Part shown: piece by piece, positions 16,926 through 54,241 of the stretch
Numbering within the stretch: position 1 is the stretch's first letter
Layout: each line of letters begins with the position of its first letter
From: Candidatus Micrarchaeota archaeon
Lineage (GTDB): Archaea; B1Sed10-29
Length of the DNA: 64,000 nt
Assembly (NCBI GenBank): GCA_964579265.1
Contig: CAZOFO010000002.1
Coordinates: 22,856 to 86,855, forward strand
Direction of reading: 5' to 3'
Made by a program: the position numbers and the translations under genes
The notes under the pieces: model-generated
The model's input: only the letters and a program-made list of their open reading frames with translations
Database searches by the model: none
Told to the model about the DNA's origin: nothing

Positions 16926-16997
16926 TGGGAAGACGGGGATTTGAACCCCGGACAACCGCCTCTTCAGGGCGGCGCTCTCCCGCTGAGCTATCTTCCC
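16926..16997 (-). tRNA. tRNA-Phe (GAA)
   Basis: Minus strand: GGGAAGA-TA-GCTC-AGCGGGAGA-GAGC-G-CCGCC-CTGAAGA-GGCGG-TTGTC-CGGGG-TTCAAAT-CCCCG-TCTTCCC-A. Full cloverleaf with anticodon GAA. Confidence 0.85.
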
Positions 16998-17008
16998 TGG
17001 TAAAAAAT

Positions 17009-17113
17009 GGGCCGGACGGGATTTGAACCCGCGGCTACCAGGTTTCTTCAGGGTTTATGTATTAATATAACCCTTTAAAAGCCTGGTGCTCTGCCAGACT
17101 GAGCTACCGGCCC
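17009..17113 (-). tRNA. tRNA-Lys (UUU) with an intron of about 32 nt at the canonical 37/38 position
   Basis: Minus strand: GGGCCGG-TA-GCTC-AGTCTGGCA-GAGC-A-CCAGG-CTTTTA[intron AAGGGTTATATTAATACATAAACCCTGAAGA]A-CCTGG-TAGCC-GCGGG-TTCAAAT-CCCGT-CCGGCCC-A. The exact intron ends are ambiguous within the A runs. Confidence 0.75.
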
Positions 17114-18543: not shown

Positions 18544-19176
18544 ATGCCTGAAACTAATGTAAAATTAGTTGAAAAACTAGTTGAAGAAGGAATAATAAAT
18601 ACTGAGAAAGTAAAAGAAGCTTTTCTAAAGATTAAAAGAGAAGATTTTGTTCCAGAAAAATTAGAAGAATACAGCTATCTAGATAAACCTCTATCAATAG
18701 GATCCGGACAAACTATTTCTGCACCTCACATGGTAGCTATGATGACAGAATACTTAAAATTAGAGAAAAATTCTAAAGTAATGGAAATAGGAACAGGTTC
18801 AGGATATCAAGCAGCTATTATATCACACATAATCGGAGAAGGAAAACTACATACTATAGAGAAAATAGAAGAACTATACAAACAATCAAAAGAAAAACTG
18901 AAACCTTACAAAAACATAAAAGTCTATAAAGGAGATGGATCTCTAGGAATACCGCAAGCAGCCCCCTTCGACAGGATAATATCAACCTGTGGAGCACCGG
19001 AAATTCCAAATTCCTGGGGAAAACAACTAAAAGAAAATGGAATAATAGTAGCTCCAGTTGGAGGAAAAAGACACCAGAAACTTAAAAGATATGAAAAAAG
19101 AAAAGGAGAACTAAAAGAAGAAGATTTGAATATCCCGTGCGCATTCGTACCTATGAAAGGAAAGAATGGGTTTTAA
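18544..19176 (+). CDS. pcm: protein-L-isoaspartate O-methyltransferase
   Basis: REDFVPE, SIGSGQTISAPHMVAMM, VMEIGTGSGYQAA, VYKGDGSLG and GIIVAPVG match PIMT. Confidence 0.85.
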   Translation: MPETNVKLVEKLVEEGIINTEKVKEAFLKIKREDFVPEKLEEYSYLDKPLSIGSGQTISAPHMVAMMTEYLKLEKNSKVMEIGTGSGYQAAIISHIIGEGKLHTIEKIEELYKQSKEKLKPYKNIKVYKGDGSLGIPQAAPFDRIISTCGAPEIPNSWGKQLKENGIIVAPVGGKRHQKLKRYEKRKGELKEEDLNIPCAFVPMKGKNGF

Positions 19177-22100
19177 GCCCTTTTTTTCTGATTAAAAACA
19201 CTATTAAAGAAGAAGTCATTAAACCTAGGAAAATGAAGTAAAAATACTTATTAGATCTTAAATCTAAGTAAGAACCTGTTAGGTTTTTTTCTTCTTTAGA
19301 AAAATCTTTAATAGGTTCTTTTCTCATAGAAATATTTTCTATTACTTTAAAATATTTTTTCCGATGAGATCTACTGCACTGAACTTCTATTGAATGTTCC
19401 CCTTCTTCCATATTACTGTATCTTTTCCTTATTATATTCTCTTTTCTTTCTGGATTTTCCCATAACCCATTATTTATTCTAACAAAACAGTTTTCATCAT
19501 TTATTATCCTTGCTTTAAATTTGAAGGATTTATTTTCCTTTTCACTTGGTGAGATTATATTTATTTCACTTTTATGTTCTTTTGTTTCAGCTAGCTCTTC
19601 ATATTCCTTTTCCCATTTTTCTTCTATCGTTTTATTTTCTTCAAAACTTTCATTTTCTTCTTCATCATCTTCTTCTGAAGGAATCTCTATAGGGCTAATT
19701 GATCCGGATCCTCCTGAAGACCCTCCAGAACCTCCTCCGGAATCAGGAGGAGAAGTTTCATCTTCTTCAATTTCGAAAATTAATGTATGTTCATTAACCA
19801 CTGAGCTATTATGTTCAGATTCTAGCCAATATTCTACTTTATAGTGGTTTCCATTTGGGAGATCAAAGTTTTCTTGATTAAGTATATTTTCTCCCTTACT
19901 TAGATTTTTCCAATTGCTCCAGAAATCTATCTTAGTATTATTGGATTTATCTACTCCTAATCGAACTTTAAATTTGTTTTTGAAGGAACTATTATGGGTT
20001 TTATTACTTGTTTCATTCTTTTCATTATTAGAAATGTTTATCTTGAAATCTTTTAATTTGGATTTCTCTTTATAATTAGTATCCCAGGTTCTTGAGAACC
20101 AAGTACCAATATTTATATCCTCCAGATGAGTTTTTTGGAAATTAGAAATATTTCCATGATTATTCATGTTACTTTTATCATGTACTGTGTTATTTTTGAT
20201 TTTTTCCATTGTCCAAAATAAAGATTCATTTCCAATCGGAAAATACCTATATTTATACAGGTCTTCTATATTTTCTTTATTTAAAGAAAATTTATAGGTT
20301 CTTACATCATCTATTCTGCCTTTAAAATAGCTTTTATTTTGGTTTGAACCTCCAAGAGTAAGTTTAGATACATTTAATAGATCTATATATGAATTATTTA
20401 TTTTTTCAGTTTTCTTCAATTCATTATCTATGTATATTTTAGTTTTATTTTCATTTATAGAGGTAACTATATGTTGCCATTCATCTTTTTTTATTCCTGA
20501 AGATTCTATTTTAATTGATTTATTTTCTAATTCTCCCTCAGTATTTAAATAAAGTTTTAATTTTCCGTTTTTTATCCTTAGATTCTTTTTAGTTTTTCCT
20601 TCTTCAGAATCAATTTGTATTATCTCTTGTTCGGATTTATTATCTTGAAAGCGAATCCAGAAACTTGTGGAAAAGGTATTGTTTATTCCAGTAATGTTTT
20701 TAATGGAAACTTTAGTTTCATTAAATACAAGAGAACTGATTTTATTTGTCGTTAAAAACCCATCCTCTATCTCTATAAAATTATTGTGATCAGACCAGTA
20801 TTCCCAATCTTTTTGTGTTTCCTTCCTCCATTCTCCTGGGTTATTTTTTGTTCTAAATGACTTTATCTTTCCTTTATCATAATTACTCGTGTTACCTTGT
20901 TTTTCTTTAATCTTTGAATAAAATTCATAATGTGTATCGGGATCTAATTCTTTGATTGTTTGATTAAATCTTTTACTTTCTTTTATTGTTCCTAAAGAAA
21001 TATTTTTCCAATTTGAATTTTCTTTTTTCCAGTAAAAATAAGCTTCTTTTTCAGTTTCTTTATCAGTATCTAAGTCTCCATATAGTTCAGCAGATTCATT
21101 GGTAATATTTTTCGGATCAAGAGTTTTAGAGTTAAAATCTAGTTTTTTGTAAACATTTCCCTTTTCATTAACTATGTATTTTCCTTCTTCACTCCATTTT
21201 ATCTTTTCTCCACCATCTTCTATAGTTTTTATTTTTGTCCAATTTTGAGTTTCGTGAATATGGATATCACCATCACTGAAAGCTAGATATTTTTGATTAG
21301 GAGACCAACTTGGTTTCCCATACTCCTCAAATTCAGCTATTTCCGCATAGTTATTTTTACTATCTAGTACATGAGAACCTATAGAAAGATATCTATTATC
21401 TGGGCTGAATTCTATTCCTTTAATATCCCAATGTCCAGGCATTTCTGGAAAACCAGATCTTTCCCCCCACTCTGATATCCTAGTATGTTCTTCAGTTTCC
21501 CATATTGATAAAAACTCTTCTGATCTCCAGAAAACAACAAGAGAATCATTAGGAGATATTTCTAATTCGTCAATTACTAAGATGCTGTCTTTATCTCCCA
21601 TTTCAGAGTAATTCCATTTATTTTTAATAGAAATTTCAGGATTTTCTGATAAAAATAAGTAGTCATCACTATCTGATATGATGGCATTACCACCAACGAA
21701 CAAATTTTTACCTGAACTTAAGAAATTAACATGCTTATTATATACATAAGAAGATTTTCTTTCTAATTCAGGTGCTTCAAATACTCTTAGATTCTTTCTA
21801 GATCTTACATCTGTTGGATGAACTGAGTACATCCCTACTATCACTTCACCATCTAATGTAGTATCTAAACTATATACTGGATAAGTTTCAAGTTTATTTT
21901 TTTCTTTGATACTCCATTCTTCCTTTTCGTAAGATATTATCCAATAATAATCGTCTTCTTCTGTATTAGGGGTAGTAAACAAAGTTTTATTAGTGAATCC
22001 GAAAGTATTTCCGTAATTACTACTACCTTTGAATTCTTCTAAGGTTTCTTCAAGTGTAAAGCTGATTGAATTTTCTCCTAATCCCCAAGAAGCTTTTACA

Positions 22101-22708
22101 GGTTTTTCCGTATCTAAAACCTCTACTTCAATTTCTAAGGTTTTATTAGTCTCTTTTAACATTTTAGAGCTTTTATTTGTTTCAGAACTTTTTTTTGATA
22201 TTCTATCAGGTATTTTTTTAACATCATAATCTTTTACTCTATTTATTCTTAAAGGAATTTCTTCAAATTTGTTTCTTAGTCTTTTATATTCTTTTAAAGA
22301 AATTTTTTCCTCTCTAAACCTATAAAATTTTTCTTTAATTAACCTAGAATCTTTATAATATTCTTCTATGTTTTTTTCTTTATCTTGAATATCGTTATAA
22401 ATCAATTGACCAAAGCTCGTCTTAGAAAAATTTATTTCTATATTATATATTCCATCATCTATCTTTTCTTTGTTCTTATTTTCAATTCTAAAAGGATATG
22501 TATCTTCCCAATCTCCTGTTTCCTCATTATATTTTTGTATTTCTTCAGTCATCTGGTATTCTAAGGAAAGATGTTCTTCGGTTAGGGCAGATTCAAACTC
22601 TAAAGAAAGACCTATATTTAAGATAAAAGATAATAGGATAAGTGAGAGAAATATTTTTAGTTTTATTCCTCTTGTATTTGAATTATAGTTACAGTGGTTC
22701 AGGTTCAT
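19151..22708 (-). CDS. large cell-surface protein with PD40/TolB-like beta-propeller repeats and a LamG/concanavalin-like domain, C-terminal TM anchor
   Basis: 1185 aa. N-terminal hydrophobic signal (ILLSFILNIGLS). Repeated FSPDNRYLS / WSPNQKYLAFSDGD propeller-like motifs. LamG-like block WQHIVTSINENKTKIYIDNE...GRIDDVRTYKFSL. GGSGGSSGGSGS linker. C-terminal FIFLGLMTSSLIVFLIRKK anchor. Confidence 0.6.
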   Translation of the reverse strand: MNLNHCNYNSNTRGIKLKIFLSLILLSFILNIGLSLEFESALTEEHLSLEYQMTEEIQKYNEETGDWEDTYPFRIENKNKEKIDDGIYNIEINFSKTSFGQLIYNDIQDKEKNIEEYYKDSRLIKEKFYRFREEKISLKEYKRLRNKFEEIPLRINRVKDYDVKKIPDRISKKSSETNKSSKMLKETNKTLEIEVEVLDTEKPVKASWGLGENSISFTLEETLEEFKGSSNYGNTFGFTNKTLFTTPNTEEDDYYWIISYEKEEWSIKEKNKLETYPVYSLDTTLDGEVIVGMYSVHPTDVRSRKNLRVFEAPELERKSSYVYNKHVNFLSSGKNLFVGGNAIISDSDDYLFLSENPEISIKNKWNYSEMGDKDSILVIDELEISPNDSLVVFWRSEEFLSIWETEEHTRISEWGERSGFPEMPGHWDIKGIEFSPDNRYLSIGSHVLDSKNNYAEIAEFEEYGKPSWSPNQKYLAFSDGDIHIHETQNWTKIKTIEDGGEKIKWSEEGKYIVNEKGNVYKKLDFNSKTLDPKNITNESAELYGDLDTDKETEKEAYFYWKKENSNWKNISLGTIKESKRFNQTIKELDPDTHYEFYSKIKEKQGNTSNYDKGKIKSFRTKNNPGEWRKETQKDWEYWSDHNNFIEIEDGFLTTNKISSLVFNETKVSIKNITGINNTFSTSFWIRFQDNKSEQEIIQIDSEEGKTKKNLRIKNGKLKLYLNTEGELENKSIKIESSGIKKDEWQHIVTSINENKTKIYIDNELKKTEKINNSYIDLLNVSKLTLGGSNQNKSYFKGRIDDVRTYKFSLNKENIEDLYKYRYFPIGNESLFWTMEKIKNNTVHDKSNMNNHGNISNFQKTHLEDINIGTWFSRTWDTNYKEKSKLKDFKINISNNEKNETSNKTHNSSFKNKFKVRLGVDKSNNTKIDFWSNWKNLSKGENILNQENFDLPNGNHYKVEYWLESEHNSSVVNEHTLIFEIEEDETSPPDSGGGSGGSSGGSGSISPIEIPSEEDDEEENESFEENKTIEEKWEKEYEELAETKEHKSEINIISPSEKENKSFKFKARIINDENCFVRINNGLWENPERKENIIRKRYSNMEEGEHSIEVQCSRSHRKKYFKVIENISMRKEPIKDFSKEEKNLTGSYLDLRSNKYFYFIFLGLMTSSLIVFLIRKKGLKTHSFLS

Positions 22709-28826: not shown

Positions 28827-29216
28827 GCTTAACTCCTTACTTATGATAGTGGAGCGTATAATAAAAGCTTATCCCTACTTTTTCTTGTTTTACCCTTGCT
28901 TCCCGTCCATTGATAATATGTATTTTATAAAATGTATTTTAATATAAGGCCAAAAACACGATAATTATAATTTAAATTATAAAATAAAGTTTAAAGAAAA
29001 TCGATGTTATTCTCTAATATGTATAATGGATTTTATAAAAAATAGTTTCGGCGGATCAGGCCGGAGAAAATGAAATCTCTACAAAGTAATTGCAAAGAGG
29101 GTTTTCCACCTGATTTACCCTTGTTAGAATTTGCGGTTGAAATTCTAGGGTCTCACGTTTCGAAAATTAGTCATGAGTCTTCTGGAGCTGGTGTGAAAAG
29201 GGTGAAAACCGGGTTT

Positions 29217-30957: not shown

Positions 30958-31043
30958 TTAGAATTCCTCATTTCTTTATTGTTTTTTTCATTTTTAGATT
31001 TTAGGGATATGATTAAATTTCTGGAAACACAGAAAATATATTA

Positions 31044-32405
31044 GTGATTTATATGAATGAATCTGAAGTTAAACTGATAGCTACATCTAAGGGAACTGAA
31101 AATGATGTCCTAGGTCCGGAGGAATTGACTGCTTATGGGGCATACGGATGTTTTGAACAGGGGGCTTCCTATGAGGTCTTCAAAGAACACTACAAAGGGA
31201 ATACTGAAGAAGAGTTTAAAGAGGAGGTAAAAGAGGTTCTAAAACAAAGTGCGGGAAGAGGACACGGAGCAGTAGCTGATCAGAACGCTTTTACTTTTTC
31301 TATAAAAAACTTACCAAGAGCAGCTACTCTTCAGCTTTGCCTACCTGAATATTTGATGCATCTGCAGCAATCGATGAGAAGAGCAACTGCAGAGAGAGGA
31401 TACGTCCTTCCGGACGAGATCAAGAATTCAGATATGTATGAAGAAGTAAAAGAAGTGCTAGACAATGCATTTGAAACTTACATGGAGCTAGTTGAAAACG
31501 AAATACCGAAAGAAGATGCTAGATTCCTCCTACCTCTCTATACTAGGACCAATATACAGACAACTGGAAATGCCAGAGAACTAATGCATCTGCACCACAT
31601 GACAAAGAAAGAACCCGTTCCAACACCAGTAAAAGAAATAATAGACGAGATGATAGAACAAGCAAGAGAAAAAGCACCTAACACTTTCAAGGACTGGGGT
31701 CACAACTACGAAAGACTCGCCTGGTACCCTTCAGCTCAGTTATACGCTGAAGAGAATGCGACTCTGAACAAGATAATAGAGGAATACGATTATCCTGAAG
31801 AGACCACTTATGTTGAAAAAGAATTATCTGAAGAAGCAATTGAAAAGGCTGTGGAGCAGAGAAACGAAGCTGAACTATCCAACCTGAAACACATACACAA
31901 CGGAAGCAAGGTAGAAGGATTCCTAGCACCGATGTCGATAGCCTGCTATCATCAATCCACCAGACAGAGAACATGGAACCACGCTGTAGAGTCCTTCTAC
32001 GACGCTGCAGAAAGAGGAAACATGGTGGTGCCACCTACAGTGAAGAATTCAGAGTACACAGAGAAATTCAAGGAACAACACAGAGAAATGATCCGACTCT
32101 ACAAAAAACTAATCAGCAAAGGGATATCCAAAAAAGAAGCAATAGGAGTAATACCTCATTCTGTCGAAATGTACGACTTTATACACGTCAATGGATGGAA
32201 CTCCATACACTCCATAGGAAAAAGAACCTGTACAAAAGCCCAATGGGAAATAAGAAGTATAGCAAACAACATAGCAGAAAAGATAAGAGAAAAAAACCCG
32301 GCACTAGGAAAATACACCTATCCACAAGGAGTAGTGTACGGAGAGTGTCCGGAAGCAGATCCTTGTGATCTCTGCGAAAAAATAAGAAAACAAAGAGAAG
32401 AATAG
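31044..32405 (+). CDS. ThyX-family (flavin-dependent thymidylate synthase-like) protein with two tandem ThyX-like domains
   Basis: The first half has GRGHGAVADQNAFTFSIKNLPRAATLQL and ARFLLPLYTRTNIQTTGNARELMHLHHM. The second half has GVIPHSVEMYDFIHVNGWNSIHSIGKRTCTKAQWEIRSIANNI. The canonical RHR...S motif is not intact in either half. Confidence 0.55.
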   Translation: MIYMNESEVKLIATSKGTENDVLGPEELTAYGAYGCFEQGASYEVFKEHYKGNTEEEFKEEVKEVLKQSAGRGHGAVADQNAFTFSIKNLPRAATLQLCLPEYLMHLQQSMRRATAERGYVLPDEIKNSDMYEEVKEVLDNAFETYMELVENEIPKEDARFLLPLYTRTNIQTTGNARELMHLHHMTKKEPVPTPVKEIIDEMIEQAREKAPNTFKDWGHNYERLAWYPSAQLYAEENATLNKIIEEYDYPEETTYVEKELSEEAIEKAVEQRNEAELSNLKHIHNGSKVEGFLAPMSIACYHQSTRQRTWNHAVESFYDAAERGNMVVPPTVKNSEYTEKFKEQHREMIRLYKKLISKGISKKEAIGVIPHSVEMYDFIHVNGWNSIHSIGKRTCTKAQWEIRSIANNIAEKIREKNPALGKYTYPQGVVYGECPEADPCDLCEKIRKQREE

Positions 32406-32518
32406 CACATAGATGATACATAGAGGTTACTATATGCCAGAAGCAATGAAAAAAAAAAGATCCAGAGATAAATAAAGCTGTAGAAAAAGAACTGGAAAGA
32501 CAGAGAAAACAGTTAGGT

Positions 32519-33667
32519 ATGATAGCTTCCGAAAACTTAGCTGGAAAAGCTGTTCTAGAAGCACAAGGAAGCGTATTAACTAATAAATACGCTGAAGGGC
32601 TTCCAGGAGACAGGTACTACGGAGGGTGCGAGAACGTAGACGTAGTAGAAGAAAAAGCAATAGAAAGAGCAAAAAAACTATTCAATGCAGAGCACGTCAA
32701 CGTACAACCTCATTCCGGAACCCAGGCCAACATGGCAGCTTACTTCTCAGTACTGGAACCAGGAGACACTATCCTAGGACCAAAACTCAGCCATGGAGGA
32801 CACCTAAGCCACGGTTCACCCTGGAGCTTCTCCGGAAAACTATTCGAAAAGATAGAGTACAAAGTAGACAGAGAAACTGAAAGATGGAACCACGAAAAGA
32901 TAAAAGAAATGGCTAGAGAACACGAACCCGACCTAATTCTCACAGGATACAGCGCCTACCCCAGACAAATAGATTTCAAAGCCTTCAAAGAAGCAGCAGA
33001 GATAGCGGACGCTTACCTAATGGCAGATATTGCCCACATCGCAGGCCTAGTAGCGGCAGGTGAACACCCAAAACCCTTCCCCGAAGCAGACATAGTCACA
33101 GGAACAACACATAAAACGCTAAAAGGAGCCAGAGGAGGATTCATACTGTGCAAAGAAGAACTAGGCGAAGAAATAAATCTCTCAGTGTTCCCTGAAATCC
33201 AAGGAGGACCGATGATGCACGCGATAGCAGGAAAAGCAATAACATTCAAACAAGCGATGACAAAAGAATTCAAAAAATATCAGAAACAAGTGGTAAAGAA
33301 CTCTAAAGAACTCGCCCAAACTCTAGAGAAAGAAGAAATGAAAATAATCACAGGAGGAACGGACACCCACCTAGTCTTAGCCGACGTAACTTCCTTAAAC
33401 ATAACTGGAAAAGAAGCAGAAGACAAACTACAAGACATAGGAATAGTTTTAAACAAAAACACCATCCCCTACGACAAAAGAGAACCTGAAGATCCTAGTG
33501 GAATAAGAATAGGAACACCTATACTAACAGAAAGAGGTATGAAAGAACCAGAAATGAAAAAAATTGGGAAAGCAATTATTAAAACATTAAAGGAAGAATC
33601 AAAAGAACAAAAAATCAAAGAGCAAGTTAAAAACCTTTGTAAGAATTTCCCACTTCCCTACCAGTAA
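32519..33667 (+). CDS. glyA: serine hydroxymethyltransferase; the annotated ORF starts at an internal Met because an A10 homopolymer at 32449-32458 breaks the frame from the upstream ATGs at 32434 and 32446
   Basis: LIASEN-type start MIASENLAGKAVLEAQGSVLTNKYAEGLPGDRYYGGC plus HGGHLSHG and TGTTHKTLKGARGG. The upstream in-frame translation DPEINKAVEKELERQRKQLG is the canonical SHMT N-terminus. Confidence 0.85.
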   Translation: MIASENLAGKAVLEAQGSVLTNKYAEGLPGDRYYGGCENVDVVEEKAIERAKKLFNAEHVNVQPHSGTQANMAAYFSVLEPGDTILGPKLSHGGHLSHGSPWSFSGKLFEKIEYKVDRETERWNHEKIKEMAREHEPDLILTGYSAYPRQIDFKAFKEAAEIADAYLMADIAHIAGLVAAGEHPKPFPEADIVTGTTHKTLKGARGGFILCKEELGEEINLSVFPEIQGGPMMHAIAGKAITFKQAMTKEFKKYQKQVVKNSKELAQTLEKEEMKIITGGTDTHLVLADVTSLNITGKEAEDKLQDIGIVLNKNTIPYDKREPEDPSGIRIGTPILTERGMKEPEMKKIGKAIIKTLKEESKEQKIKEQVKNLCKNFPLPYQ

Positions 33668-33710: not shown

Positions 33711-34304
33711 GTGATACTAATGAACGAAACAATGAAAAATCTTGTAAAAGCATTTATAGGAGAAAGTCAAGCCAGAAACAGATACAATATCTACTCAAAA
33801 AGAGCAAAGAAAGAAGGATACGAACAGATAGCGGAAATATTCAATAAAACAGCCGAACAGGAAAGACAGCACGCAAAATGGTTATTCAGACTAATAAACG
33901 AAGTAAAAGAAGATGAAGAAGGAGATTTATCCGAAATAGAAGTACAGGCATCAGCACCAACCACACTAGGAGATACAAAGGAAAATCTAAAAGCAGCTAT
34001 AGACGGAGAACACTACGAAAACACCGAGATGTATCCAAGCTTCGCGGAAAAAGCCCAAGAAGAAGGATACCCAGAAATAGCTAAAAGACTGAGAGCAATA
34101 GCAAGAGCGGAAGAACACCACGAAAACAGGTACAAAAAACTCCTAAAAGAAGTAAGAGAAGGAACAGTCCACGAAAAACAAGAAAAGAAACAATGGGTAT
34201 GCAGAAAATGCGGATACGTACACGAAGGAAGAAAACCACCGGAAGAATGCCCATCATGCAGCCACCCAACAGAATACTTCCAGCTAAAATGCGAAGAATA
34301 TTGA
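33711..34304 (+). CDS. rbr: rubrerythrin
   Basis: Ferritin-like diiron domain (ESQARNRY...EQERQHAKW; [10 protein letters not shown]...EEHHENRY) plus a C-terminal rubredoxin-like CRKCGY...CPSC. Confidence 0.85.
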
Positions 34305-34326
34305 AAAAAAAGGAGAAGGTTTTGAA

Positions 34327-34713
34327 ATGACCAACAAAGGCGAAATATACAAATGCGAAATCTGCGGAAACATAGTGGAAGTAATACACGAAGGAGTAGG
34401 AGAACTAGTATGCTGCGGAGAATCAATGGAACTGCTGGAACCACAAACAGAAGACAAAGGATACGAAAAACACGTCCCAGTAATAGAAGAAACGGATAAA
34501 GGAATCAAAGCCAAAGTAGGATCAAATCCACATCCAATGGAAGAAAAACACTACATAGAATGGATACAAGTAAAACTAAAGAACGGTAAATCATACAGAA
34601 AATACCTGGAACCGGACAAAAAACCAGAAGCAGAATTCCCAGTGAAAAAAGAGGATATAGAAAAGATCAGAGAATACTGCAATGTGCACGGCCTGTGGAA
34701 AAACGAAATTTAG
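34327..34713 (+). CDS. dfx: desulfoferrodoxin (2Fe superoxide reductase)
   Basis: The N-terminal desulforedoxin-like segment is CEICGN...CCG. The SOR domain follows: [23 protein letters not shown]. Confidence 0.85.
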
Positions 34714-34728
34714 AAAAAGTGATCTACA

Positions 34729-35013
34729 ATGTTATCTGAAATACCTATAGATCTGGATAAAATAGATCAAGAGGATATAGACAAAGAGATACTCCGCAAA
34801 AGCCTGTTAGCAGAGCTAGACGCAATAGACCTATACGAACAAATGGCAAACATGACAAATGACGAAAACATTAAGAAAGTTCTCCTGGACGTAGCAGAAG
34901 AGGAAAAAGAACACGTAGGAGAATTCCAGGAAATGCTACTAAGAAGAGATAAAGAACAAGTAGAACAAATGAAAGAAGGAAAAGAAGAAGTAAAAGAACT
35001 AACAGGTAAATAA
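34729..35013 (+). CDS. small ferritin-like (E-x-x-H) domain protein
   Basis: 94 aa. DLYEQMANMT...LLDVAEEEKEHVGEFQEML fits a short ferritin-like/rubrerythrin-type helix pair. Directly follows rbr and dfx. Confidence 0.4.
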   Translation: MLSEIPIDLDKIDQEDIDKEILRKSLLAELDAIDLYEQMANMTNDENIKKVLLDVAEEEKEHVGEFQEMLLRRDKEQVEQMKEGKEEVKELTGK

Positions 35014-42619: not shown

Positions 42620-45600
42620 CTATTTTCCTTTATTTATTGGAAATCCTTTTCCTCCTTTAGTTATTAGTAATAGAACTGATAAAACTACAATTGCGGCTAA
42701 TACGGCTGCTACTATGATTATTGTTAGATTTCTTGTTTTTATTGTTGGGTCTTTTTCTATGAAATGTGCTTTTATCTCTTTATTGTTGTCTATTGTTATT
42801 TTGATTTCTTTTTCTGTGCTTTCATGGTCTCCGGTCCATTTTTGAAATTTCCATCCTTCTTTTGGTTCTGGTATGATCTTAATCTCTTTTCCTTCTTCAT
42901 AGGTGTGTGTTCCTTTTTGTGGTTCTGTTTCTCCTTCTCCTTCGATGTTGATTGTTAAGTCGTATTCTTCTGGCTCCTTTATCGGTTCTTTTTCTTTGAA
43001 GTGTGCCGTGATGTTTTTGTCTTCTGTTATTGTTATTTTGATTTCTTTTTCTGTGCTGGTGTGGTCATCTGTCCATCCGTGGAATTTCCATTCGTCTTCC
43101 GGTTCCGCTGTTATTGTTATATTTTCTCCTTCCTCGTATATGTGTACTCCTTCTTGCGGTTCTGTAGTTCCGTTTCCTTCGATGTTTATCGTTAGGTTGT
43201 GGTAGTATGTTTTTTCTTTGAAATGTGCTGTGACGTTTCTGTCTTCTGTCATATTTATTGTGAATGAGGGTTCTGTCCCGGTATGATCCCCTGTCCATTC
43301 TTCGAAGTACCATCCTTCTGCTGGATAGGCTTCCACTTCTACTTCGCTTTCTTCTATGTAAGTGTAGGTTTTTATTCCTGGTGATGCTTCTCCTTTTCCT
43401 TCTGCATTTATCGTGAGATCGTAGGTGGTGGGTGTTGGCCTTACGTATCCTCCTGTTCCTGTACTTTCTACTATAATTTCTACTATGTCTGTATGGTCTT
43501 CACTTGAAGCATTTAATTCATAGGTTCCTCTGTTTGCTTCCCAAGTAAAGTTGCTTTTGTGAGTTTGGTTTGGTTGAAGAGTGATGTTATTTTCTTTATC
43601 TTCGATTTCTTCACCTATTTTTAATGTAATATTTTGAGTGCCTTCGAGATTTCCTATGTTTTCTACTCTATAATCTATTTTTACCTCGTCGCCTTCTCTG
43701 TATTCTTCTCCTTCTATCGGCGAGGTGATGTTTATTTGGAAGTATGGTGCTTCTGTGAAGTTTGCAGTAATATTGTAGTCATCTTCCATTTTTATTGTGG
43801 TTTCTGGTGATCTTGGGTCTTCTATAGTATTTACATCATCCGTCCAATTTTGTAATTTCCAGCCTATGTCTGGAGTTGAGGTTATATTGACTGTTCTGTT
43901 CTCTCTGTATTTATGTGTTCCTTCTGGAGGAGTAGTGGATCCTTCTCCATCTGTATTTATTATTAATTCCTTTGCATCTATCTGCTCCTGCCATTCTAAC
44001 CCAGGATACCCTATATTTTTTTCTTCATCTCCCACTGTTGCATGATCTCCGTCCATCCATGTATCATTGAAATCCCAATCCTCATAAGTGTCATTTGAAT
44101 ATTCCCAGGTCATATCTTCGGTTGTTCTTTCGTAAAGTCCTTCATATTCTACATCCACATATTCTCCTTTACCAATATCGTATCTAGCTTTTACCCCTTC
44201 TTCTTGACTACTTACATTAGTATTCCAGTATGTGTTTACGAATTCAGTATCTTTATCATAATGTTCTTGAGCTGCGAAACCCCCTGACCGACTACCACCC
44301 TTTACTTTCGTTGCTGTGTAAACATCTATAAAGTCCCCTCCACCTGATAAAACACCGGCAAACCCTCCTATCCGTGATTCGCCATCTCCTTCGACTTCGG
44401 CAGCAGTATATGAATCATATACATAGCCTCTAGTCATATGGCCTAAGAAAGCACCAGTATCTATGAATGCATCATCCTCAGCATTTGTATAGATATATGA
44501 GTCTTTTACAAAACTGTTTCTGACTTCGCCTTCCATTATTTGTCCAACTAATCCACCTACTAAGTCCCAAGTGTCTTCCGAGATATTTTTCTTTACTGTT
44601 GCATTTTCTATCCCTACATTCTCCACTTCCCCCTCAATTGTGCTAAATAGTCCTATTGCATCTCTTTCACCCTTGTCATCTATATGAAAATCGTTTATAT
44701 TGTAATTTTGACCGTCAAAGGTCCCTATGAAATGATTATCTCTATCTCCTATTGGTTTCCAGCCGTAACCATCATTAGCATCTGATGCAGCATGTTCTCC
44801 ATATCCGTCTGTGTTTTTGTCTAAGTCATCAACTAAAGTATATTCCAAATCTAAATGATTTTGTACGTTATTTAGGTCGTGCCAGTTACTAATTTTTATA
44901 TTTTGCCATTGTAATGTGGGGTATCCTGTGTTCCCCTTTTGGTCTTCTACTGTTGAATGGTGTCCATCCAACCACGTTTCTCCAAAATCCCATTCTTCGT
45001 AGGTTTCGTTATATTTCCAAGTCATATCTTCTGTATTTTTACCTGTGGCATTACCAGAGGTATTTGTTTGCTCTGAGGTATTAATATTCCAGTAATTACC
45101 TTTCATTTCATATTCATCGTTTATAGATACAGCTCCTGCAAATCCTTTGTCTGTTGGGTTTGTATCGTCTTCGTATTCAACGCTTCCAGTAGAAAAAGAA
45201 TCTATAATTATGCCTCGGTAGTTGTATCCTACAAATCCTCCGATAGATTCTCCTGTTGATCCTGAATTTCTAGTTGCTTTACCAGTAGAATATGAATTTT
45301 CTATATTATGTCCGGATGCTAATCTACCTGTAAACCCTCCTACTCTTTCATTTCCAGATACTTTTCCTTCTGAATATGAATATTTTATTACTCCGTCGTT
45401 TTTCCCTACAAATCCTCCTACTGTTTTATTTCCTGTTACGTCTCCTGTGGCGTATGAGTTTTTAATTAAGTCTTCGTCTTCTGCGCAACTCTGTCCTACT
45501 AATCCACCTACTTCTTCTGCGTCTTCTGCGTTAACATCTCCTGTGGCGTATGAATTGTTTATTACTCTCCAGTTCTCACCTACTAACCCGCCTATTTTTT

Positions 45601-46447
45601 TAGGATTAAGATGAGGCTGTATAGATTCTACGTCTCCCTCTGCATAGCTGTTTTCAATAGATCCATCTCCTTTCGATTCTCCTACTAATCCTCCTACTTG
45701 TTGAACTCCTTGGGTCAGTCCTGTAGCGTAGCTCTTGATTATTTCACCTCTTGATTCTCCTACTAATCCTCCTACTTTGTATCCTCCTCCTACATAGGCA
45801 TTTGAATGGCTATTTTTTATTAATCCTCCACCTGAAGATAGTCCGACTAACCCTCCTACCATCTTGTCATTTGAAACTGAGCTTCCGGAAGAAGAACAAT
45901 TATCTATTGTCCCGTGATTACTCCCTGCTAATAAGCCGACTCCATGATCAGGCAGGGTATCACCCCAACCTTCTACATCTCCTGAAACATCAACATTTTC
46001 GATAAGTCCTTCGTTTTTTCCTGTTAATCCTCCTGTATGTGAAGTATTTTCGCCTCCTGCTACATTAATGTTATCTATATTTAAGTCTTTAACAGTTCCG
46101 TTTATGCTTGAAAATAACCCTAAACCTACAATATTATCTCTATTAATATATAAATCATTTATAGTGTGATTATGACCATTAAAAGAACCTTTAAACAACT
46201 CAGTGTTGTTTCCTATTGGGTCCCAACCGTTATTAGTATCTACTAAATCATTATAGCCGGCGGTCTCATTGTCTAGACTACTATTTAGAATATAGTCTCC
46301 GTCTAGATTGTCTCTTGTTTCATTTAATCCTCTTATATCCTTGGTCTTACTGTATATTTCTGCTGTATAGTAAAGTGCTAAGATATTTAAAAACTTTTCC
46401 CTTCTATAGGTTTTTGTTGCTCGAGCAACAAAGAATATAAAACACAT
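42620..46447 (-). CDS. giant cell-surface protein with GLUG motifs and four Listeria-Bacteroides (Flg_new) repeats, C-terminal TM anchor
   Basis: 1275 aa. Many GGLVG(E/Q)S repeats (GLUG-like). Four blocks of about 75 aa with the G-W-x-F-x-x-W-T-D/G-D pattern (EGWYFEEWTGD, DEWKFHGWTDD, EGWKFQKWTGD, IGWKLQNWTDD). C-terminal IIIVAAVLAAIVVLSVLLLI anchor. Confidence 0.6.
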   Translation of the reverse strand: MCFIFFVARATKTYRREKFLNILALYYTAEIYSKTKDIRGLNETRDNLDGDYILNSSLDNETAGYNDLVDTNNGWDPIGNNTELFKGSFNGHNHTINDLYINRDNIVGLGLFSSINGTVKDLNIDNINVAGGENTSHTGGLTGKNEGLIENVDVSGDVEGWGDTLPDHGVGLLAGSNHGTIDNCSSSGSSVSNDKMVGGLVGLSSGGGLIKNSHSNAYVGGGYKVGGLVGESRGEIIKSYATGLTQGVQQVGGLVGESKGDGSIENSYAEGDVESIQPHLNPKKIGGLVGENWRVINNSYATGDVNAEDAEEVGGLVGQSCAEDEDLIKNSYATGDVTGNKTVGGFVGKNDGVIKYSYSEGKVSGNERVGGFTGRLASGHNIENSYSTGKATRNSGSTGESIGGFVGYNYRGIIIDSFSTGSVEYEDDTNPTDKGFAGAVSINDEYEMKGNYWNINTSEQTNTSGNATGKNTEDMTWKYNETYEEWDFGETWLDGHHSTVEDQKGNTGYPTLQWQNIKISNWHDLNNVQNHLDLEYTLVDDLDKNTDGYGEHAASDANDGYGWKPIGDRDNHFIGTFDGQNYNINDFHIDDKGERDAIGLFSTIEGEVENVGIENATVKKNISEDTWDLVGGLVGQIMEGEVRNSFVKDSYIYTNAEDDAFIDTGAFLGHMTRGYVYDSYTAAEVEGDGESRIGGFAGVLSGGGDFIDVYTATKVKGGSRSGGFAAQEHYDKDTEFVNTYWNTNVSSQEEGVKARYDIGKGEYVDVEYEGLYERTTEDMTWEYSNDTYEDWDFNDTWMDGDHATVGDEEKNIGYPGLEWQEQIDAKELIINTDGEGSTTPPEGTHKYRENRTVNITSTPDIGWKLQNWTDDVNTIEDPRSPETTIKMEDDYNITANFTEAPYFQINITSPIEGEEYREGDEVKIDYRVENIGNLEGTQNITLKIGEEIEDKENNITLQPNQTHKSNFTWEANRGTYELNASSEDHTDIVEIIVESTGTGGYVRPTPTTYDLTINAEGKGEASPGIKTYTYIEESEVEVEAYPAEGWYFEEWTGDHTGTEPSFTINMTEDRNVTAHFKEKTYYHNLTINIEGNGTTEPQEGVHIYEEGENITITAEPEDEWKFHGWTDDHTSTEKEIKITITEDKNITAHFKEKEPIKEPEEYDLTINIEGEGETEPQKGTHTYEEGKEIKIIPEPKEGWKFQKWTGDHESTEKEIKITIDNNKEIKAHFIEKDPTIKTRNLTIIIVAAVLAAIVVLSVLLLITKGGKGFPINKGK
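42745..43700. repeat. intragenic tandem DNA repeats of roughly 230-240 bp encoding the Flg_new-type repeats
   Basis: Near-identical antisense ORF peptides in the ORF track (42764..42958 versus 43001..43195) reveal nucleotide-level repetition. The protein repeats are clearly paralogous. Confidence 0.6.
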
Positions 46448-48066: not shown

Positions 48067-49161
48067 ATGAAAATGGATACAACAAAACCTCTAAAAAACA
48101 TAAAATCAACACTGAAAAACAAAATTCCCAGAAGACTGAAAAAAATAGACGAACTTCCAACAGGAACCGTAACCGCATTATTCATAATAACTATAGTCAC
48201 CACATACCTCTACCTAGCCTATAGCTACCTCTACATACCAGGACCTCAATTAGCAGCATACGGATTTATCTTAGAAAGACCACTAACTGCCTTATCCTAC
48301 TCCTTCATACACCTCAGCCCCCAGCACATACTAGCCAATGTAGCTCTCCTCTTAGCCGTAGGTATCGTGGCAGAACAAAAACTAAAAACAAAGGACTACA
48401 TAGCGATATTCTTCGCCTCAGCAGCAACTTCAGGAGTAGTATTCCATATACTAACACCCGAACCAACCGTACTAGTAGGAGCCTCCTCAGCAGTATCAGG
48501 GATACTAGCCGCATCAATATTCATCGATATAAAGAAAGCAATTGTAGCGATATTGATATTTACGGTTTTCCTCAATTTCACAGCTCCTGTAGTAGAACAA
48601 CACACCAGAGAAAAACTAGGAGTATTGGAACAAGAAACACAACAAATAGAAGAAGAAGTAAATAAAACCGAAGAAAAGCTAAACAAAACTGAGGAAGAGA
48701 TAAATAAAACTGAAGAAGAAGCAGATGAAATTGAAAAGAAAATTAACGAAACAGAACAGGAAATAGGAGAGAAAATGACTAGGATAGAGTATTTAGAAAA
48801 AGAATGCTACGAGGAACCTATAAACGAAACAGCATGTGAAGAACTTGATGAAATAGAAGAGCAGAAAGAACAAGTAGAAGAAGAATTAGAAGAATTAGAA
48901 AAAGGATTAGAAGAAAAAGAAGAAGAAATTGAGGAAGAAAAAGAGAAAAGACAAGAAATAACTATAGGGCTAAACAAAACAATAGAAAGATTAATGGAGA
49001 AAATGCAAGAAAAAGAAGTCGTAGAAGAAGGAGTAGAAAGAGAAGAAAGAGCTAGAACCAGCTCTATAGTGCACCTAGTAGGAGCAATAACAGGACTAAT
49101 CTACCTAGGAATATTCAGGAGGGACATAATATGGGATCTGCCATCTCAAGTCTCACAATAA
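48067..49161 (+). CDS. rhomboid-family intramembrane serine protease with a coiled-coil insertion of about 130 aa
   Basis: TM helices carry the rhomboid motifs HLSPQHILANV, GASSAVSGIL (GxSG catalytic Ser) and SSIVHLVGAITGLIY (catalytic His). An E/K-rich coiled coil (NKTEEKLNKTEEEINKTEEE...) is inserted between the Ser and His helices. Confidence 0.6.
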   Translation: MKMDTTKPLKNIKSTLKNKIPRRLKKIDELPTGTVTALFIITIVTTYLYLAYSYLYIPGPQLAAYGFILERPLTALSYSFIHLSPQHILANVALLLAVGIVAEQKLKTKDYIAIFFASAATSGVVFHILTPEPTVLVGASSAVSGILAASIFIDIKKAIVAILIFTVFLNFTAPVVEQHTREKLGVLEQETQQIEEEVNKTEEKLNKTEEEINKTEEEADEIEKKINETEQEIGEKMTRIEYLEKECYEEPINETACEELDEIEEQKEQVEEELEELEKGLEEKEEEIEEEKEKRQEITIGLNKTIERLMEKMQEKEVVEEGVEREERARTSSIVHLVGAITGLIYLGIFRRDIIWDLPSQVSQ

Positions 49162-50186
49162 GAAAAATAATACAAGAAATAAAACCTAAAATAGAAGATA
49201 AATACCTAAACAAAGTACAACAACTAGAAAAAAATCTCTACAGGTTTAGATTCAGCCCAGGATCAAAAGACTTACTGATAGAGCCAGGAAAAAGACTTAA
49301 CATAACAAAATACAGGCTTCAAGCACCAAAACAAGCAACACAAGCATCCATGATCATCAGGAAACACCTGGAAAACACGAAACTAGAAAAAATAAACCAA
49401 AAAGGATTTGATAGGGTCGTGGAAATGACATTCACAAACGGAAACAAAGTAATAGCAGAAATATTCGGAGAAGGAAACCTAATACTAACAGATAAAGATA
49501 AAAAAATAATTTACGCTCACAGAAGAGGAGAATGGAAACACAGAAAAATAATAAAAAACGCTGAATATAAATATCCTCCTTCAGACACCAATAGCTTCTA
49601 CCAGACAGATTTAGAAGAATTCAAAAAACAGCTTGAAGAAAAGGAAGAGGATAAAAAGATAGTAGTTCTCCTAGCCACAGACTACGGACTAGGAGGAAAG
49701 ATAGCAGAACACATCTGCAAAGAAGCAAACATAGATAAAAACAAGAAAAATCTAGAAGAAACCGAAATAGAGAAAATCTATGAAAAAACCAAAAAAACAC
49801 TTGAAAAAGAACCAAAACCAGTTAAACAAGGAGAAAAAATCAATCCATTCCCATTAGAAGGAGAAATAGACGAAAAATACAATTCAATAAGCCAAGCAAT
49901 CGATGAAAACTATACAGAAAAACAAGAAAAAACAGAAAAAAGTAAAGAACTAAAAAAACTTGAAAAAAGACTAAAACACCAAAAAGAAGCAATAAAAGGA
50001 TTCAAAGAAAAAATAAAAGAAAACAAGAAAAAAGGAGACCTAATCTACAAAAACTACGATAAAGTGGCAAAAGCAATAGAGCTATTCAATAAAGGAAAAG
50101 AAGGAAGAGAGAAACTCCAAGAACTAGGAGTAGAATTAAAAGACGGTAAAATCATACTGGAATTGGAAGAACCAAAAAAAGAATGA
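49131..50186 (+). CDS. NFACT-N/FbpA-like protein (possible Rqc2/NEMF-related) with a coiled-coil C-terminus
   Basis: The N-terminal segment IRKIIQEIKPKIEDKYLNKVQQLEKNLYRFRF...GKRLNITKYRL resembles NFACT-N. No NFACT-R domain is seen. Confidence 0.45.
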   Translation: MGSAISSLTIRKIIQEIKPKIEDKYLNKVQQLEKNLYRFRFSPGSKDLLIEPGKRLNITKYRLQAPKQATQASMIIRKHLENTKLEKINQKGFDRVVEMTFTNGNKVIAEIFGEGNLILTDKDKKIIYAHRRGEWKHRKIIKNAEYKYPPSDTNSFYQTDLEEFKKQLEEKEEDKKIVVLLATDYGLGGKIAEHICKEANIDKNKKNLEETEIEKIYEKTKKTLEKEPKPVKQGEKINPFPLEGEIDEKYNSISQAIDENYTEKQEKTEKSKELKKLEKRLKHQKEAIKGFKEKIKENKKKGDLIYKNYDKVAKAIELFNKGKEGREKLQELGVELKDGKIILELEEPKKE

Positions 50187-50632: not shown

Positions 50633-53600
50633 ATGTTAGGGAGACAACCAAATATAGAAAAAGAAAGAATGAGAAAACTTTTTTCCACTTGCTTCTCAAT
50701 AATATTCGTATTTTCCGCCCTAAACGCAGGTAGGATACCTCCACTCACTTACGACGAATCAGGGATACCTAGACAAGTACCAATACAAGAAGCACTAGAA
50801 AAATCAAATAAATTAGAAGCACCTACCTCAATACAAGGAAAACTAAAATATAACTCTATAAACGAAGAAACAGATATCTTTCTTCAAAGATCCTGGGAAA
50901 ACGCTAGAAAAGCACAAGAAAAAGCAGAAGGATCGCAAAACGTATACAATAACTGGCTTGACAAAGGATGGGAATACTTCAAAGAAATATCCAGCCTCGG
51001 ACTACTTAACACAAAAGTAGACGAAGTAGAAAAACTTCATCGAGAAACCAGAGAACACTACATAAAAGCACTTCAATCATCCAGATTAACCTATGAAGAA
51101 GTAATCTCTGACATGTATAGCCAAAAAATCAAACTGGAAAAAATAGGAGCAGATAACTACACCGGTCCAGCACACCAATCACACAAAAAAGTAAAAGAAA
51201 CACTCAATAGACTGGATAAAGAAAAAATAGAAGAAGAAATATTTCAAGAAAAAGGAAAAGACATAGCCACAATAATGACAAAACTATCAAAAGAAATAAA
51301 AACAGCTGAAATGATAAACCCAGAAATATTCAACCTCATAACAAACCCAAGAAACTCTCTAATAACTGAATATAGCGAACTAAAAAAAGAAATAGATAAA
51401 GATATACAGAGAATGAATAAAACTAAAAGAAAACAAAAAGAAAAACACGAAAGACTGATAAAAAAACTTGAAAAAAGATTGACTGACCTGGAAAAAGAAA
51501 AAATAGAAAAAGTCAGATCCAACCCCTCCACAGGGAGAAAAGGAGAAATAACCCATACTGAAATAAGCGGAAACCCAGCTGAACAATACAGACAGATAGA
51601 ATCAATCAAAAGTAAATCCGAAAGAAAAGCAGCTGAAGCAAGAAGGATATATAGAAACGAAGAATACAACTACCTATCTAGAAATATAAAAATATATAAA
51701 ATGACAATAAACAACCTACAAAAATCATTAGAAACAACTGAAGAACTTGAAAAAACCCTTAAAAATATAGAAAAACACTACAAAGAAAAAATAAACAAAA
51801 GAAAAAGCGAAATAGAAGAATCAATCCTTACAAGATACAGAGAAAAAATTAAAGATAAGGAAGAATATGCAAAAGAGCAAGAAACCATTGGTGAAAGAAT
51901 AAAAAAACTTGAAGAAACTCTAGAATACATAGAAACAGTAAAAGAACTTGAAAAAGAAGATCTAACCCCGATAAAAAGAAGAATAGAAAACACAATCAAT
52001 AGAGTAGAAAAATACATCGAACTAGGATATCCTCTTGAAGATAAACTGGAAAAATTAGAAAAACTGAAACAGGTAAACGACCCAGAAATGCTTCCAAAAA
52101 CCCAAAAAACCTTAAATGAACTTAAAAAAACCATTGAAATAAGAACGTCTCCTCTTGAAAACGAAATAAGAGAAAAAAGAGAAAAAACAGATAGAATAAT
52201 TGAATCAATGAACAAAATAACCAAAACAGCTTACGGAGAAATAGAAATATCTGATAAAATAGATGAAAAAAGACTAAAAGAACTAGAAAACCAATACAGA
52301 AAACTAAAATCCTTTGATCCATTAAAAAACCCGATTAGAAAATTAGAAGGATATAGAAGCATAATAAGAGAAATATCACCGGTAATAAACAGTTTCAAAG
52401 AAGAAATACTTTTAGAAAATACAGAGATAAAGCTAAATGAAGAAAAAGAAACACTAAAATGTAACCAAGAAATAATTACAGAGATACAGATAGAAATTCA
52501 GAATACCCTTCCAATAACTCTATACAACACTAAAATAGAAAAAGAAATTCCAGGAAAACTAAAATTAAGACAACAACCAGAAAAAGAAAACCTACACCTA
52601 GATATAAACGAAATAAATCCACACGAAACAGTAATAAAAACCAAAAAAGCAAAAATGACACCCTACACCTGTGAAGAAAAAAGAAAAGAAACAATATCAA
52701 TAAATGAAGAAACAAAAACAGAGCAAAAAGAAATAAAGATAATAAGAAATGTTAAAGACCCGGAATTATTCCTAGATTCAAGGGTACCAGAAAAAGGAAA
52801 AATAATAAACAAGCCACCTAATGCAAGGGTAGAAAATGGAAAAATAAAAATCAAAGCCCATGAAGAAGAACAAGAAATACAGATAACCTATAGAAAAAAC
52901 CCAGAAATAGAGATAATAGAAGAAAAGAACTGGAGAGGAAAAGAAACAATAGATCATCAGATAGAGATAATAAACCACGAAGAAAAAATCCAGAATTTCA
53001 CCATAAAGCGTAATATAGATCCATCAAAAATAATAGAATGTAACTACCCTATAAAAAATATAGAAGAATATACTGAAACAGATAAAAAAGAAATTCTAAA
53101 TCAAAAACAAGACCTAGCCTCAATTGAAAGAACCGAAATAAGAATACCTGAACTCAAAAACCATGCAGAGATAGAAATAACCTATCTCGGAGGAGAACCA
53201 AAAGAAGAAGCACAGAAAGCTATGAACGAGATTTACTTTCTCAAAGACACCAGAAAGATACCTGAAGGTATAGAAAGCCAAATAGAATCAATTGAAAGAT
53301 TATTTGAACTCGAGAAATACCAGAAAGTAACGGAAGAAGCTCCTAAAATAATAAATGAATTAAAGAAACAACCAATAAAAGGAATAGAAAGAGAAATAGA
53401 AGAAAAAGAGGAAACTGAAGCAATAAATGAAACTCATCAAGAGGAAAAAATTGAAGAAGAAAATAAATCAGAGACTTACGAGCCAAATATTGATGAAATA
53501 AGAAAACTAAAGGAAAAAACATCAGTAATATGTAGATTAATCGAATGTGGAGAAATTAAACAAAAATTAGATAATTTAGACCAATACAGCGATATAGAAA

Positions 53601-54241
53601 AAGAAAAAATAAAATCTCTGCGAGACAAAATCAGTTCTAAAGAAAGTAAAGCAGAATCAAAAATGAAAGAAAACTCCGAAGAAATAGAAAAAATATTCAA
53701 ATCTCTTGAAAAAGCTTTTGAAATAGAACCTGACCTAGAAATCGATAAAAAACATATACCGTATACAAAAGAAGATTTTAATTCTCTAAAAAATAGAAGA
53801 GAAAATCTAGAAAATGAGAAATCATCATTGGTGCTTGATTCATTCGATAAAAGAATAGAGGAAAATAACCCTGAAGAACTAAAAAATGAAATAAAAAAAC
53901 GAGAAGAACTAATAAAAGATTCCAAAGATCTTTTATCCCAAATGGAAAAATCATCAGTAGAAAGATTAAAAGAAGCAAAGAATAAATATCAAGAAAAAGG
54001 GGAAAAAGCACCTGGAAGCCTTGAAAAAGCAAAAGAATCTCATGAGAAAGGAAAATATCTCGAATCAATTGCATATTCTGAGAGATCAATAGAGAAAGTT
54101 CCTTCTAAAGATTCTGGATTTCCCTATAAATATCTAGTGGGTCTGATAATGATTATAGGAACTTCCCTATATGTGATTAAGAAACCAGGAAAGGATAAGG
54201 AGGATGAAGAAGACCCTGTTATGCTAAAAAGAGGAAAATAA
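50633..54241 (+). CDS. giant coiled-coil membrane protein (N-terminal signal/anchor, C-terminal TM)
   Basis: 1202 aa, almost entirely K/E-rich heptad-like sequence. The N-terminal hydrophobic segment is FSTCFSIIFVFSALNAG. The C-terminal TM is YKYLVGLIMIIGTSLYVI. Confidence 0.5.
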   Translation: MLGRQPNIEKERMRKLFSTCFSIIFVFSALNAGRIPPLTYDESGIPRQVPIQEALEKSNKLEAPTSIQGKLKYNSINEETDIFLQRSWENARKAQEKAEGSQNVYNNWLDKGWEYFKEISSLGLLNTKVDEVEKLHRETREHYIKALQSSRLTYEEVISDMYSQKIKLEKIGADNYTGPAHQSHKKVKETLNRLDKEKIEEEIFQEKGKDIATIMTKLSKEIKTAEMINPEIFNLITNPRNSLITEYSELKKEIDKDIQRMNKTKRKQKEKHERLIKKLEKRLTDLEKEKIEKVRSNPSTGRKGEITHTEISGNPAEQYRQIESIKSKSERKAAEARRIYRNEEYNYLSRNIKIYKMTINNLQKSLETTEELEKTLKNIEKHYKEKINKRKSEIEESILTRYREKIKDKEEYAKEQETIGERIKKLEETLEYIETVKELEKEDLTPIKRRIENTINRVEKYIELGYPLEDKLEKLEKLKQVNDPEMLPKTQKTLNELKKTIEIRTSPLENEIREKREKTDRIIESMNKITKTAYGEIEISDKIDEKRLKELENQYRKLKSFDPLKNPIRKLEGYRSIIREISPVINSFKEEILLENTEIKLNEEKETLKCNQEIITEIQIEIQNTLPITLYNTKIEKEIPGKLKLRQQPEKENLHLDINEINPHETVIKTKKAKMTPYTCEEKRKETISINEETKTEQKEIKIIRNVKDPELFLDSRVPEKGKIINKPPNARVENGKIKIKAHEEEQEIQITYRKNPEIEIIEEKNWRGKETIDHQIEIINHEEKIQNFTIKRNIDPSKIIECNYPIKNIEEYTETDKKEILNQKQDLASIERTEIRIPELKNHAEIEITYLGGEPKEEAQKAMNEIYFLKDTRKIPEGIESQIESIERLFELEKYQKVTEEAPKIINELKKQPIKGIEREIEEKEETEAINETHQEEKIEEENKSETYEPNIDEIRKLKEKTSVICRLIECGEIKQKLDNLDQYSDIEKEKIKSLRDKISSKESKAESKMKENSEEIEKIFKSLEKAFEIEPDLEIDKKHIPYTKEDFNSLKNRRENLENEKSSLVLDSFDKRIEENNPEELKNEIKKREELIKDSKDLLSQMEKSSVERLKEAKNKYQEKGEKAPGSLEKAKESHEKGKYLESIAYSERSIEKVPSKDSGFPYKYLVGLIMIIGTSLYVIKKPGKDKEDEEDPVMLKRGK

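Follow-up and report, generated by a model that had tools for sequence, protein, structure and literature searches.

A probably hypermutable poly(A) tract in the first codons of the serine hydroxymethyltransferase gene of a Candidatus Micrarchaeota archaeon

In a 64-kb stretch of DNA from a Candidatus Micrarchaeota archaeon (B1Sed10-29; GCA_964579265.1, contig CAZOFO010000002.1, positions 22,856 to 86,855), which we refer to as the window, glyA, the gene for serine hydroxymethyltransferase (SHMT), probably carries a hypermutable 5′ poly(A) tract, with the window holding an out-of-frame allele whose cost would be eased by leaky rescue of the reading frame or borne as a tolerated loss of the enzyme. 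The tract comprises ten adenines in the window (A10, 32449-32458), where it is the longest homopolymer in the whole 64 kb, and nine (A9), ten or eleven (A11) in other assemblies of nearly identical sequence. All coordinates are window positions, the window representing the A10 allele, and all features of the locus lie on the + strand.

The sequence at this site reads ...GAGGTTACTAT ATG CCA GAA GCA ATG AAA AAA AAA AGA TCC AGA GAT AAA TAA..., with ATG codons at 32434-32436 and 32446-32448, both in frame 0. Translation in this frame from ATG 32434 gives MPEAMKKKRSRDK, 13 codons that end at TAA 32473-32475 (frame 32434-32475), and the positions that the initial annotation had assigned to the two ATG codons, the A10 run and this stop proved exact on re-reading. 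The body of SHMT lies in the +1 frame, which is closed by TGA 32447-32449, is open from 32450, reads KKKDPEINKAVEKELERQRKQLGMIASEN... and runs intact up to its stop at 33667. Between TGA 32447 and 32519 this frame has no ATG, GTG or TTG; its first start codon is the internal ATG at 32519-32521, which encodes Met29 of the MIASEN motif and opens an open reading frame (ORF) of 382 aa (32519-33667). The A11 allele also has no start codon there, as its glyA frame is open upstream only from 10 nt before the ATG. Start codon and SHMT body are in different frames in the A10 allele and form one continuous frame in the A9 allele, represented by the database protein P0121. Deleting one A from the window sequence produces a continuous 410-aa protein in which the run forms codons 6-8 (Lys-Lys-Lys, AAA AAA AAA), and the tryptic peptides DPEINK, AVEKELER and QLGMIASENLAGK arise only when the frame is restored upstream of Met29.

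ATG 32434 is the true start of glyA, judging from the ATG and 24-nt spacing found in orthologues, the Shine-Dalgarno (SD)-like motif in front of it and the thyX context. The SD-like GAGGT at 32423-32427, read from the sequence, stands 6 nt before this ATG, a motif and spacing seen in many other genes of the window; relatives carry AGGAG, AGAGGA or AAGGA at the same place, and all orthologous loci have an SD-like purine motif ~6-10 nt upstream of the start. A further in-frame ATG at 32413 precedes the short ORF but lies upstream of GAGGT. At ATG 32519 the only SD-like bases are an AGGT that directly abuts the codon, and the spacing usual in the window is not matched.

The nearest orthologues, at 69-76% identity and 408-411 aa in length, belong to uncultured archaea of DPANN type that carry the labels Micrarchaeota, Diapherotrites or 'archaeon'. 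Seven of them begin MPK(E/N)(I/L)..(I/T)DP, with eight codons before DP, and an eighth, from the Diapherotrites locus L002 (P0010), begins MKLKEIDP. In seven of the seven orthologous loci the ATG and exactly 24 nt precede GAT-CC(N), whereas the window has 25 nt, so it carries exactly one A more than the ancestral spacing; the proposal that a single extra A splits the SHMT N-terminus is thereby upheld. None of the seven orthologous loci has a long A run at the site, the longest being A6, and all are in frame, which makes the long run a feature of this lineage alone. In all close relatives thyX lies directly upstream of glyA, the spacer between the two in relatives being 20-29 nt, and this conserved pair suggests a ThyX-SHMT operon. 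The window thyX (31044-32405; Pfam Thy1, E 1.5e-52) encodes a tandem Thy1 protein of ~450 aa. Its two Thy1 stretches make it about twice as long as the 191-position Thy1 profile, a length kept in all close relatives.

The frame beyond the tract encodes an intact SHMT body. This glyA body (32450-33667) scores 503 bits (E 6e-151; cut-off 27) with the Pfam SHMT profile (PF00464), of whose 399 positions it matches 3-399, and the match starts at residue 2 of the KKKDPEINK translation, equivalent to profile position 3; homology therefore reaches the A run itself and the gene is split by a one-base shift. The best relative in the PDB is 3pgy (E 3e-149), alignments with solved SHMT structures begin at residue 6 of the repaired protein, and the PLP (pyridoxal phosphate)-binding lysine motif (T-T-H-K-T-L) can be read in the translation as GTTHKTLKGARGG. 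The body is 100% identical to P0001, a truncated protein of 382 aa, and to residues 29-410 of the 410-aa P0121, both of which fall in the same 90% cluster of the protein collection. Apart from the single indel within a poly(A) run of at least 10, the gene is undegraded, and the protein body is the same in the A9 and A10 alleles.

We compared the window with every contig encoding an identical ThyX, SHMT or rubrerythrin, all of them at least 99.9% identical to it, and tract lengths were taken from the assembly consensus in nine assemblies including the window. The run is A10 in the window and in the Logan assemblies of SRR9330141, SRR16248214, SRR16248215 and SRR16248216, A11 in the Logan assembly of SRR16248206, and A9 in the Logan assembly of SRR13089369 and the ENA assemblies ERZ27266004 and ERZ27266011. 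Of these lengths only A9 keeps the frame, so glyA is broken in six of the nine. The statement that nine A would give a continuous MPEAMKKKDPEINK... protein is borne out by P0121, the identical 410-aa A9 product, which is present in an independent ENA assembly. Over 21,234 bp, the only differences between ERZ27266011 and the window are this A and one synonymous single-nucleotide polymorphism (SNP) at 33178 (AAT/AAC, Asn), which serves as a haplotype marker; the remaining assemblies differ from the window by 0-2 SNPs (further sites at 31014, 32819 and 34636) and have no second indel. The background with 33178C carries A10 twice and A9 once, the background with 31014A carries both A10 and A9, and the window-type background carries A10 twice and A11 once. 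Different lengths on one SNP background indicate recurrent length change, and such a pattern would result from a tract whose length changes much more quickly than point mutations build up. The initial annotation had offered a frameshift, a slippage site or a sequencing error, choices that were appropriate in themselves; a hypervariable tract was missing from them, and lengths of 9, 10 and 11 were found. Neither a scan of the JGI metagenomes for the site with a variable gap, a collection from which the organism is absent, nor a literature search for the run accessions gave a match.

Long homopolymers are otherwise rare in this genome. The window holds 258 A/T runs of six bases, 97 of seven, 10 of eight, none of nine and one of ten, where Markov models of order 1, 3 and 5 predict 21-39 runs of eight, 8-17 of nine and 5-13 of at least ten; at each order, none of 100 simulations had as few runs of eight or no run of nine. 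The genome purges long A/T runs, and the glyA tract is the exception. Baranov et al. 2005 (PMC1088944) interpret such a cut-off as selection against runs that are slippery in transcription or replication. Every genic run of eight in the window is a sense-strand poly(A); its genes have no sense-strand poly(T) of this length. In a window that is ~90% coding, glyA is also the only frame-broken gene that we found, so frameshifting is no general fault of this assembly.

We consider it quite probable that the length polymorphism is real at the DNA level, a non-technical origin that we infer from the comparison of assemblies. Several points weigh against this reading. Lengths come from assemblies alone, to which homopolymer miscalls, slippage in the polymerase chain reaction (PCR) during library preparation or the choice of bubbles by the assembler may have contributed. 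Both ENA assemblies, made with MEGAHIT, have A9 and most Logan assemblies have A10, making an assembler effect conceivable, and ERZ27266011 and SRR9330141 share the 33178C haplotype and could come from the same reads, in which case their difference would reflect mixed reads or the assemblers. No control tract of at least nine bases is available, and the loci of co-occurring relatives likewise have no run of at least eight. Finally, slippage by the RNA polymerase of this host is presumed, and our literature search found no archaeal example.

The strongest alternative, unlikely in our estimate, is technical: A9 would be present everywhere and glyA intact, with A10 and A11 produced by sequencing error, PCR slippage or the assembler. 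It draws on the fact that A9 is the in-frame state of ancestral length, reported by three assemblies, and on the contrast between the two MEGAHIT assemblies and the mostly A10 Logan assemblies. Homopolymers of about 10 bases are also the most error-prone context in Illumina sequencing, which favors an artefact. It has to account, however, for the recurrence of A10, which the window (NCBI-derived) shares with the Logan assemblies of four different runs, with at least two accession series involved, and for the three lengths (9, 10 and 11) given by Logan alone, a pipeline that thus shows no fixed bias. Under any single true length at least four of the nine consensus calls would be wrong, yet there is no other indel, all assemblies match the window within 0-2 SNPs, and the A8/T8 runs at 34304 and 36423, which contig L092 covers, are invariant. 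Two simpler technical accounts were rejected: a one-off assembly error, as A10 is reproduced in four other runs, and general sloppiness of the assembly, as no other split gene appeared in Pfam scans of ~50 ORFs or in the gene table of L092.

Under the hypermutable-tract reading, the glyA poly(A) would change its length by replication slippage, far faster than the rest of the genome mutates, and near-identical strain populations would carry A9 (encoding the 410-aa SHMT), A10 or A11. In A10 cells, ribosomes starting at the SD-equipped ATG 32434 would stop after 13 codons, and full-length SHMT would be made only through slips of RNA polymerase on the T10 template, together with a rare +1 slide of the ribosome. 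The rescue transcripts would have one A fewer or two more (MKKKK), and SHMT expression would be reduced and not abolished, as in reduced-genome endosymbionts. Alternatively, A10 cells may have no SHMT, with the frameshift as a tolerated and reversible loss-of-function allele. Our analysis weakly favors leaky rescue over plain loss of SHMT, because SHMT is expected to provide the adjacent ThyX with methylene-tetrahydrofolate and losing glyA would be costly; in an organism with ThyX, glyA loss was viable but costly (PMC6294363). RNA polymerases are known to give mRNAs of mixed length on A/T runs of at least 9 (PMC5009743, PMC1088944), and 5′ poly(A) tracts mutate at ~1000 times the point-mutation rate, toggling genes on and off (PMC2831843).

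Only a +1 or -2 ribosomal shift, or an A9 or A12 version of the mRNA or DNA, brings the A10 allele back into frame; the A12 version reads MPEAMKKKKDPEINK..., and the A11 allele would need +1 or -2 nt. The initial annotation had proposed that -1 slippage on the run restores the frame. For ribosomes this is wrong: a -1 shift leads into the third frame, which reads MPEAMKKKKIQR and stops at TAA 32469-32471.

The closest precedent is found in Buchnera and Blochmannia, whose poly(A) frameshifts (Tamas et al. 2008, as cited in PMC3017870; PMC5009743) share with glyA a single-base indel in a poly(A) run of at least 10 within an otherwise intact housekeeping gene, an AT-rich, small-genome and probably host-dependent organism, and a proposed rescue by mixed-length mRNAs. 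For such frameshifted housekeeping genes, the summary of Tamas 2008 in PMC3017870 gives ~30% full-length transcripts. The present case differs in its archaeal host, whose RNA polymerase is Pol II-like and would have to be assumed to slip, and in that the frameshift is not fixed, with the in-frame A9 coexisting; a single such gene was also seen, compared with 8-11 per Blochmannia genome. A second precedent is inlA of Listeria monocytogenes (Orsi et al. 2010, PMC2831843), which likewise has a poly(A) in its first codons, a frameshift peptide of ~8-13 aa, and recurrent, reversible changes with independent origins on different backgrounds. Unlike glyA, inlA encodes a surface virulence factor under host-driven selection, while glyA encodes a central one-carbon enzyme with no evident selective rationale for switching.

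A bolder reading, which we regard as doubtful, is that length switching and slippage together set SHMT dosage per cell, the tract acting as an on/off or dimmer switch for the thymidylate and one-carbon cycle of ThyX and SHMT. If true, no earlier metabolic phase-variable locus would be documented in Archaea, or natural frame rescue through slippage of an archaeal RNA polymerase would be seen for the first time. In the strictly adaptive version, somewhat less probable still, glyA would be a contingency locus that toggles SHMT and the ThyX/SHMT thymidylate cycle in sub-populations. The tract is indeed a homopolymer at the 5′ end of a coding region, where switching is cheapest (PMC2831843), its length variants toggle the frame on shared backgrounds, and at the level of assemblies its length is recurrently polymorphic. 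The out-of-frame state is also the majority call (six of nine assemblies), and this is the only long run retained in a genome that purges them. Against phase variation, the tract is missing in all seven relatives and hence is young, with no sign of maintenance, glyA is a housekeeping gene and not a surface or restriction gene, and the same data fit a leakily rescued hot spot that is neutral or slightly harmful.

A working SHMT could also be made from the A10 allele by reinitiation at Met29 (32519), which we find very improbable. The 13-codon ORF stops 43 nt upstream of ATG 32519, the ORF from there is intact (382 aa) and annotated by gene callers, and the catalytic motifs all lie downstream of Met29. 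The 28 residues that would be missing, however, correspond by homology to the conserved N-terminal arm (Pfam positions 3 to ~30), which in SHMT wraps the partner subunit of an obligate dimer (PMC7916883), so that the product would lack a contact normally made around its dimer partner. The arm is kept in every relative examined, the nine closest being 408-411 aa long and aligned from Met1, and ATG 32519 has no properly spaced SD.

Least credible of all, to the point of being nearly negligible, is an evolved ribosomal frameshift or transcriptional slippage site needed for glyA expression: A10 is an efficient slippage motif (PMC1088944, PMC5009743) and the commonest length among the assemblies, but neither run nor frameshift is conserved in orthologues, in-frame A9 alleles occur in the same strain, the flanking RNA folds are undistinguished (z-scores -0.8 to -1.9; long runs need no stimulator), and the 0-frame codon after the run, AGA, recurs in the surrounding glyA, making a 'hungry' codon role unlikely. 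The initial annotation had held that a conserved A10 in relatives would support programmed slippage; the orthologue check gave the opposite, with A6 as the longest run and in-frame spacing throughout, which argues against it. Known recoding sites, the A9 of Thermus thermophilus dnaX and the T9/A10 sites of Shigella mxiE and spa13 (PMC1088944, PMC5009743), are also coding A/T runs of 9-10, and the same mechanism could restore the glyA frame. Such known sites are conserved, and either two useful products or products in a regulated ratio arise from them, whereas the glyA tract is lineage-specific and polymorphic in length, and out of frame it gives a 13-aa peptide for which no role is evident. 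The locus resembles two known kinds of system, the endosymbiont poly(A) frameshift and the inlA-type 5′ homopolymer switch, and it lacks the conservation of programmed recoding.

A discontinuity between contigs also falls within glyA itself, at 32893/32894: in two other samples, ERZ27266004 and SRR16248216, the contigs break or diverge precisely after 32893. Contig L096 ends there, and L095 continues with 131 nt of unrelated AT-rich sequence (L095 4341-4471) that truncates the ORF at 165 aa. Neither a protein search with the open frame of this tail nor blastn against the gathered sequences found a homologue of it. L095 also has a C>T change at 32819 that replaces proline by serine in the GSPWSFSG motif, a proline conserved in 13 of 13 fetched homologues, and a companion contig from the same sample (the start of L099) resumes cleanly at 33054. 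The break could reflect a structural variant disrupting glyA in part of the population, or just as well an assembly-graph artefact or chimera; a structural variant, if true, would favor glyA being dispensable. Over a wider range, the Logan contigs of SRR16248206, SRR16248215 and SRR16248216 share a start at 29067, and two of the three also share an end at 34001, recurrent graph breaks that suggest strain-level variation or repeats.

Downstream of glyA lies an oxidative-stress cluster (33711-35013) encoding rubrerythrin, desulfoferrodoxin and a 94-aa encapsulated-ferritin-like or rubrerythrin-like protein. It is kept in relatives, some of which have a PQ-loop gene inserted, and points to an anaerobic lifestyle. 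Archaeal markers in the window comprise Pus10 with an archaeal THUMP domain, aTrm56, eIF-6, L31e, Rpr2, TFIIE-alpha and aFttA, in addition to geranylgeranylglyceryl phosphate (GGGP) synthase and glycerol-1-phosphate (G1P) dehydrogenase. A 106-nt tRNA on the - strand (17008-17113) adjoins tRNA-Phe (16926-16997); it has an Rfam match and no ARAGORN match, and is probably an intron-containing archaeal tRNA. Three very large ORFs, at 19151-22708 (1185 aa, Laminin_G/ConA-like), 42620-46447 (1275 aa, with GLUG and InlB B-repeat matches) and 50633-54241 (1202 aa, without a Pfam match), may encode surface or adhesion proteins of an episymbiont. An ORF of the NFACT_N family (49131-50186, 351 aa) covers only positions 2-345 of the 456-position profile, and the gene after it lies on the other strand; the ORF represents either a DPANN version of reduced length or a truncated gene.

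The mechanism that we favor for glyA is not new; what is new is the DPANN-type archaeal host, the position of glyA beside thyX and the three tract lengths across public datasets. In practical terms, the database entry P0001 is an N-terminally truncated SHMT of 382 aa, and the gene should be annotated from 32434 as frameshifted or length-variable, so that glyA is read neither as a short enzyme nor as missing in the metabolic reconstruction of this DPANN genome. The tract also provides a case of homopolymer instability in an archaeon that otherwise purges runs of at least 8. SHMT is the partner of the only visible thymidylate synthase, and if A10 and A11 are real majority alleles, either the symbiont tolerates the loss of SHMT or its RNA polymerase slips enough for rescue. 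Either outcome would inform our understanding of host dependence in DPANN archaea and of the fidelity of archaeal transcription.

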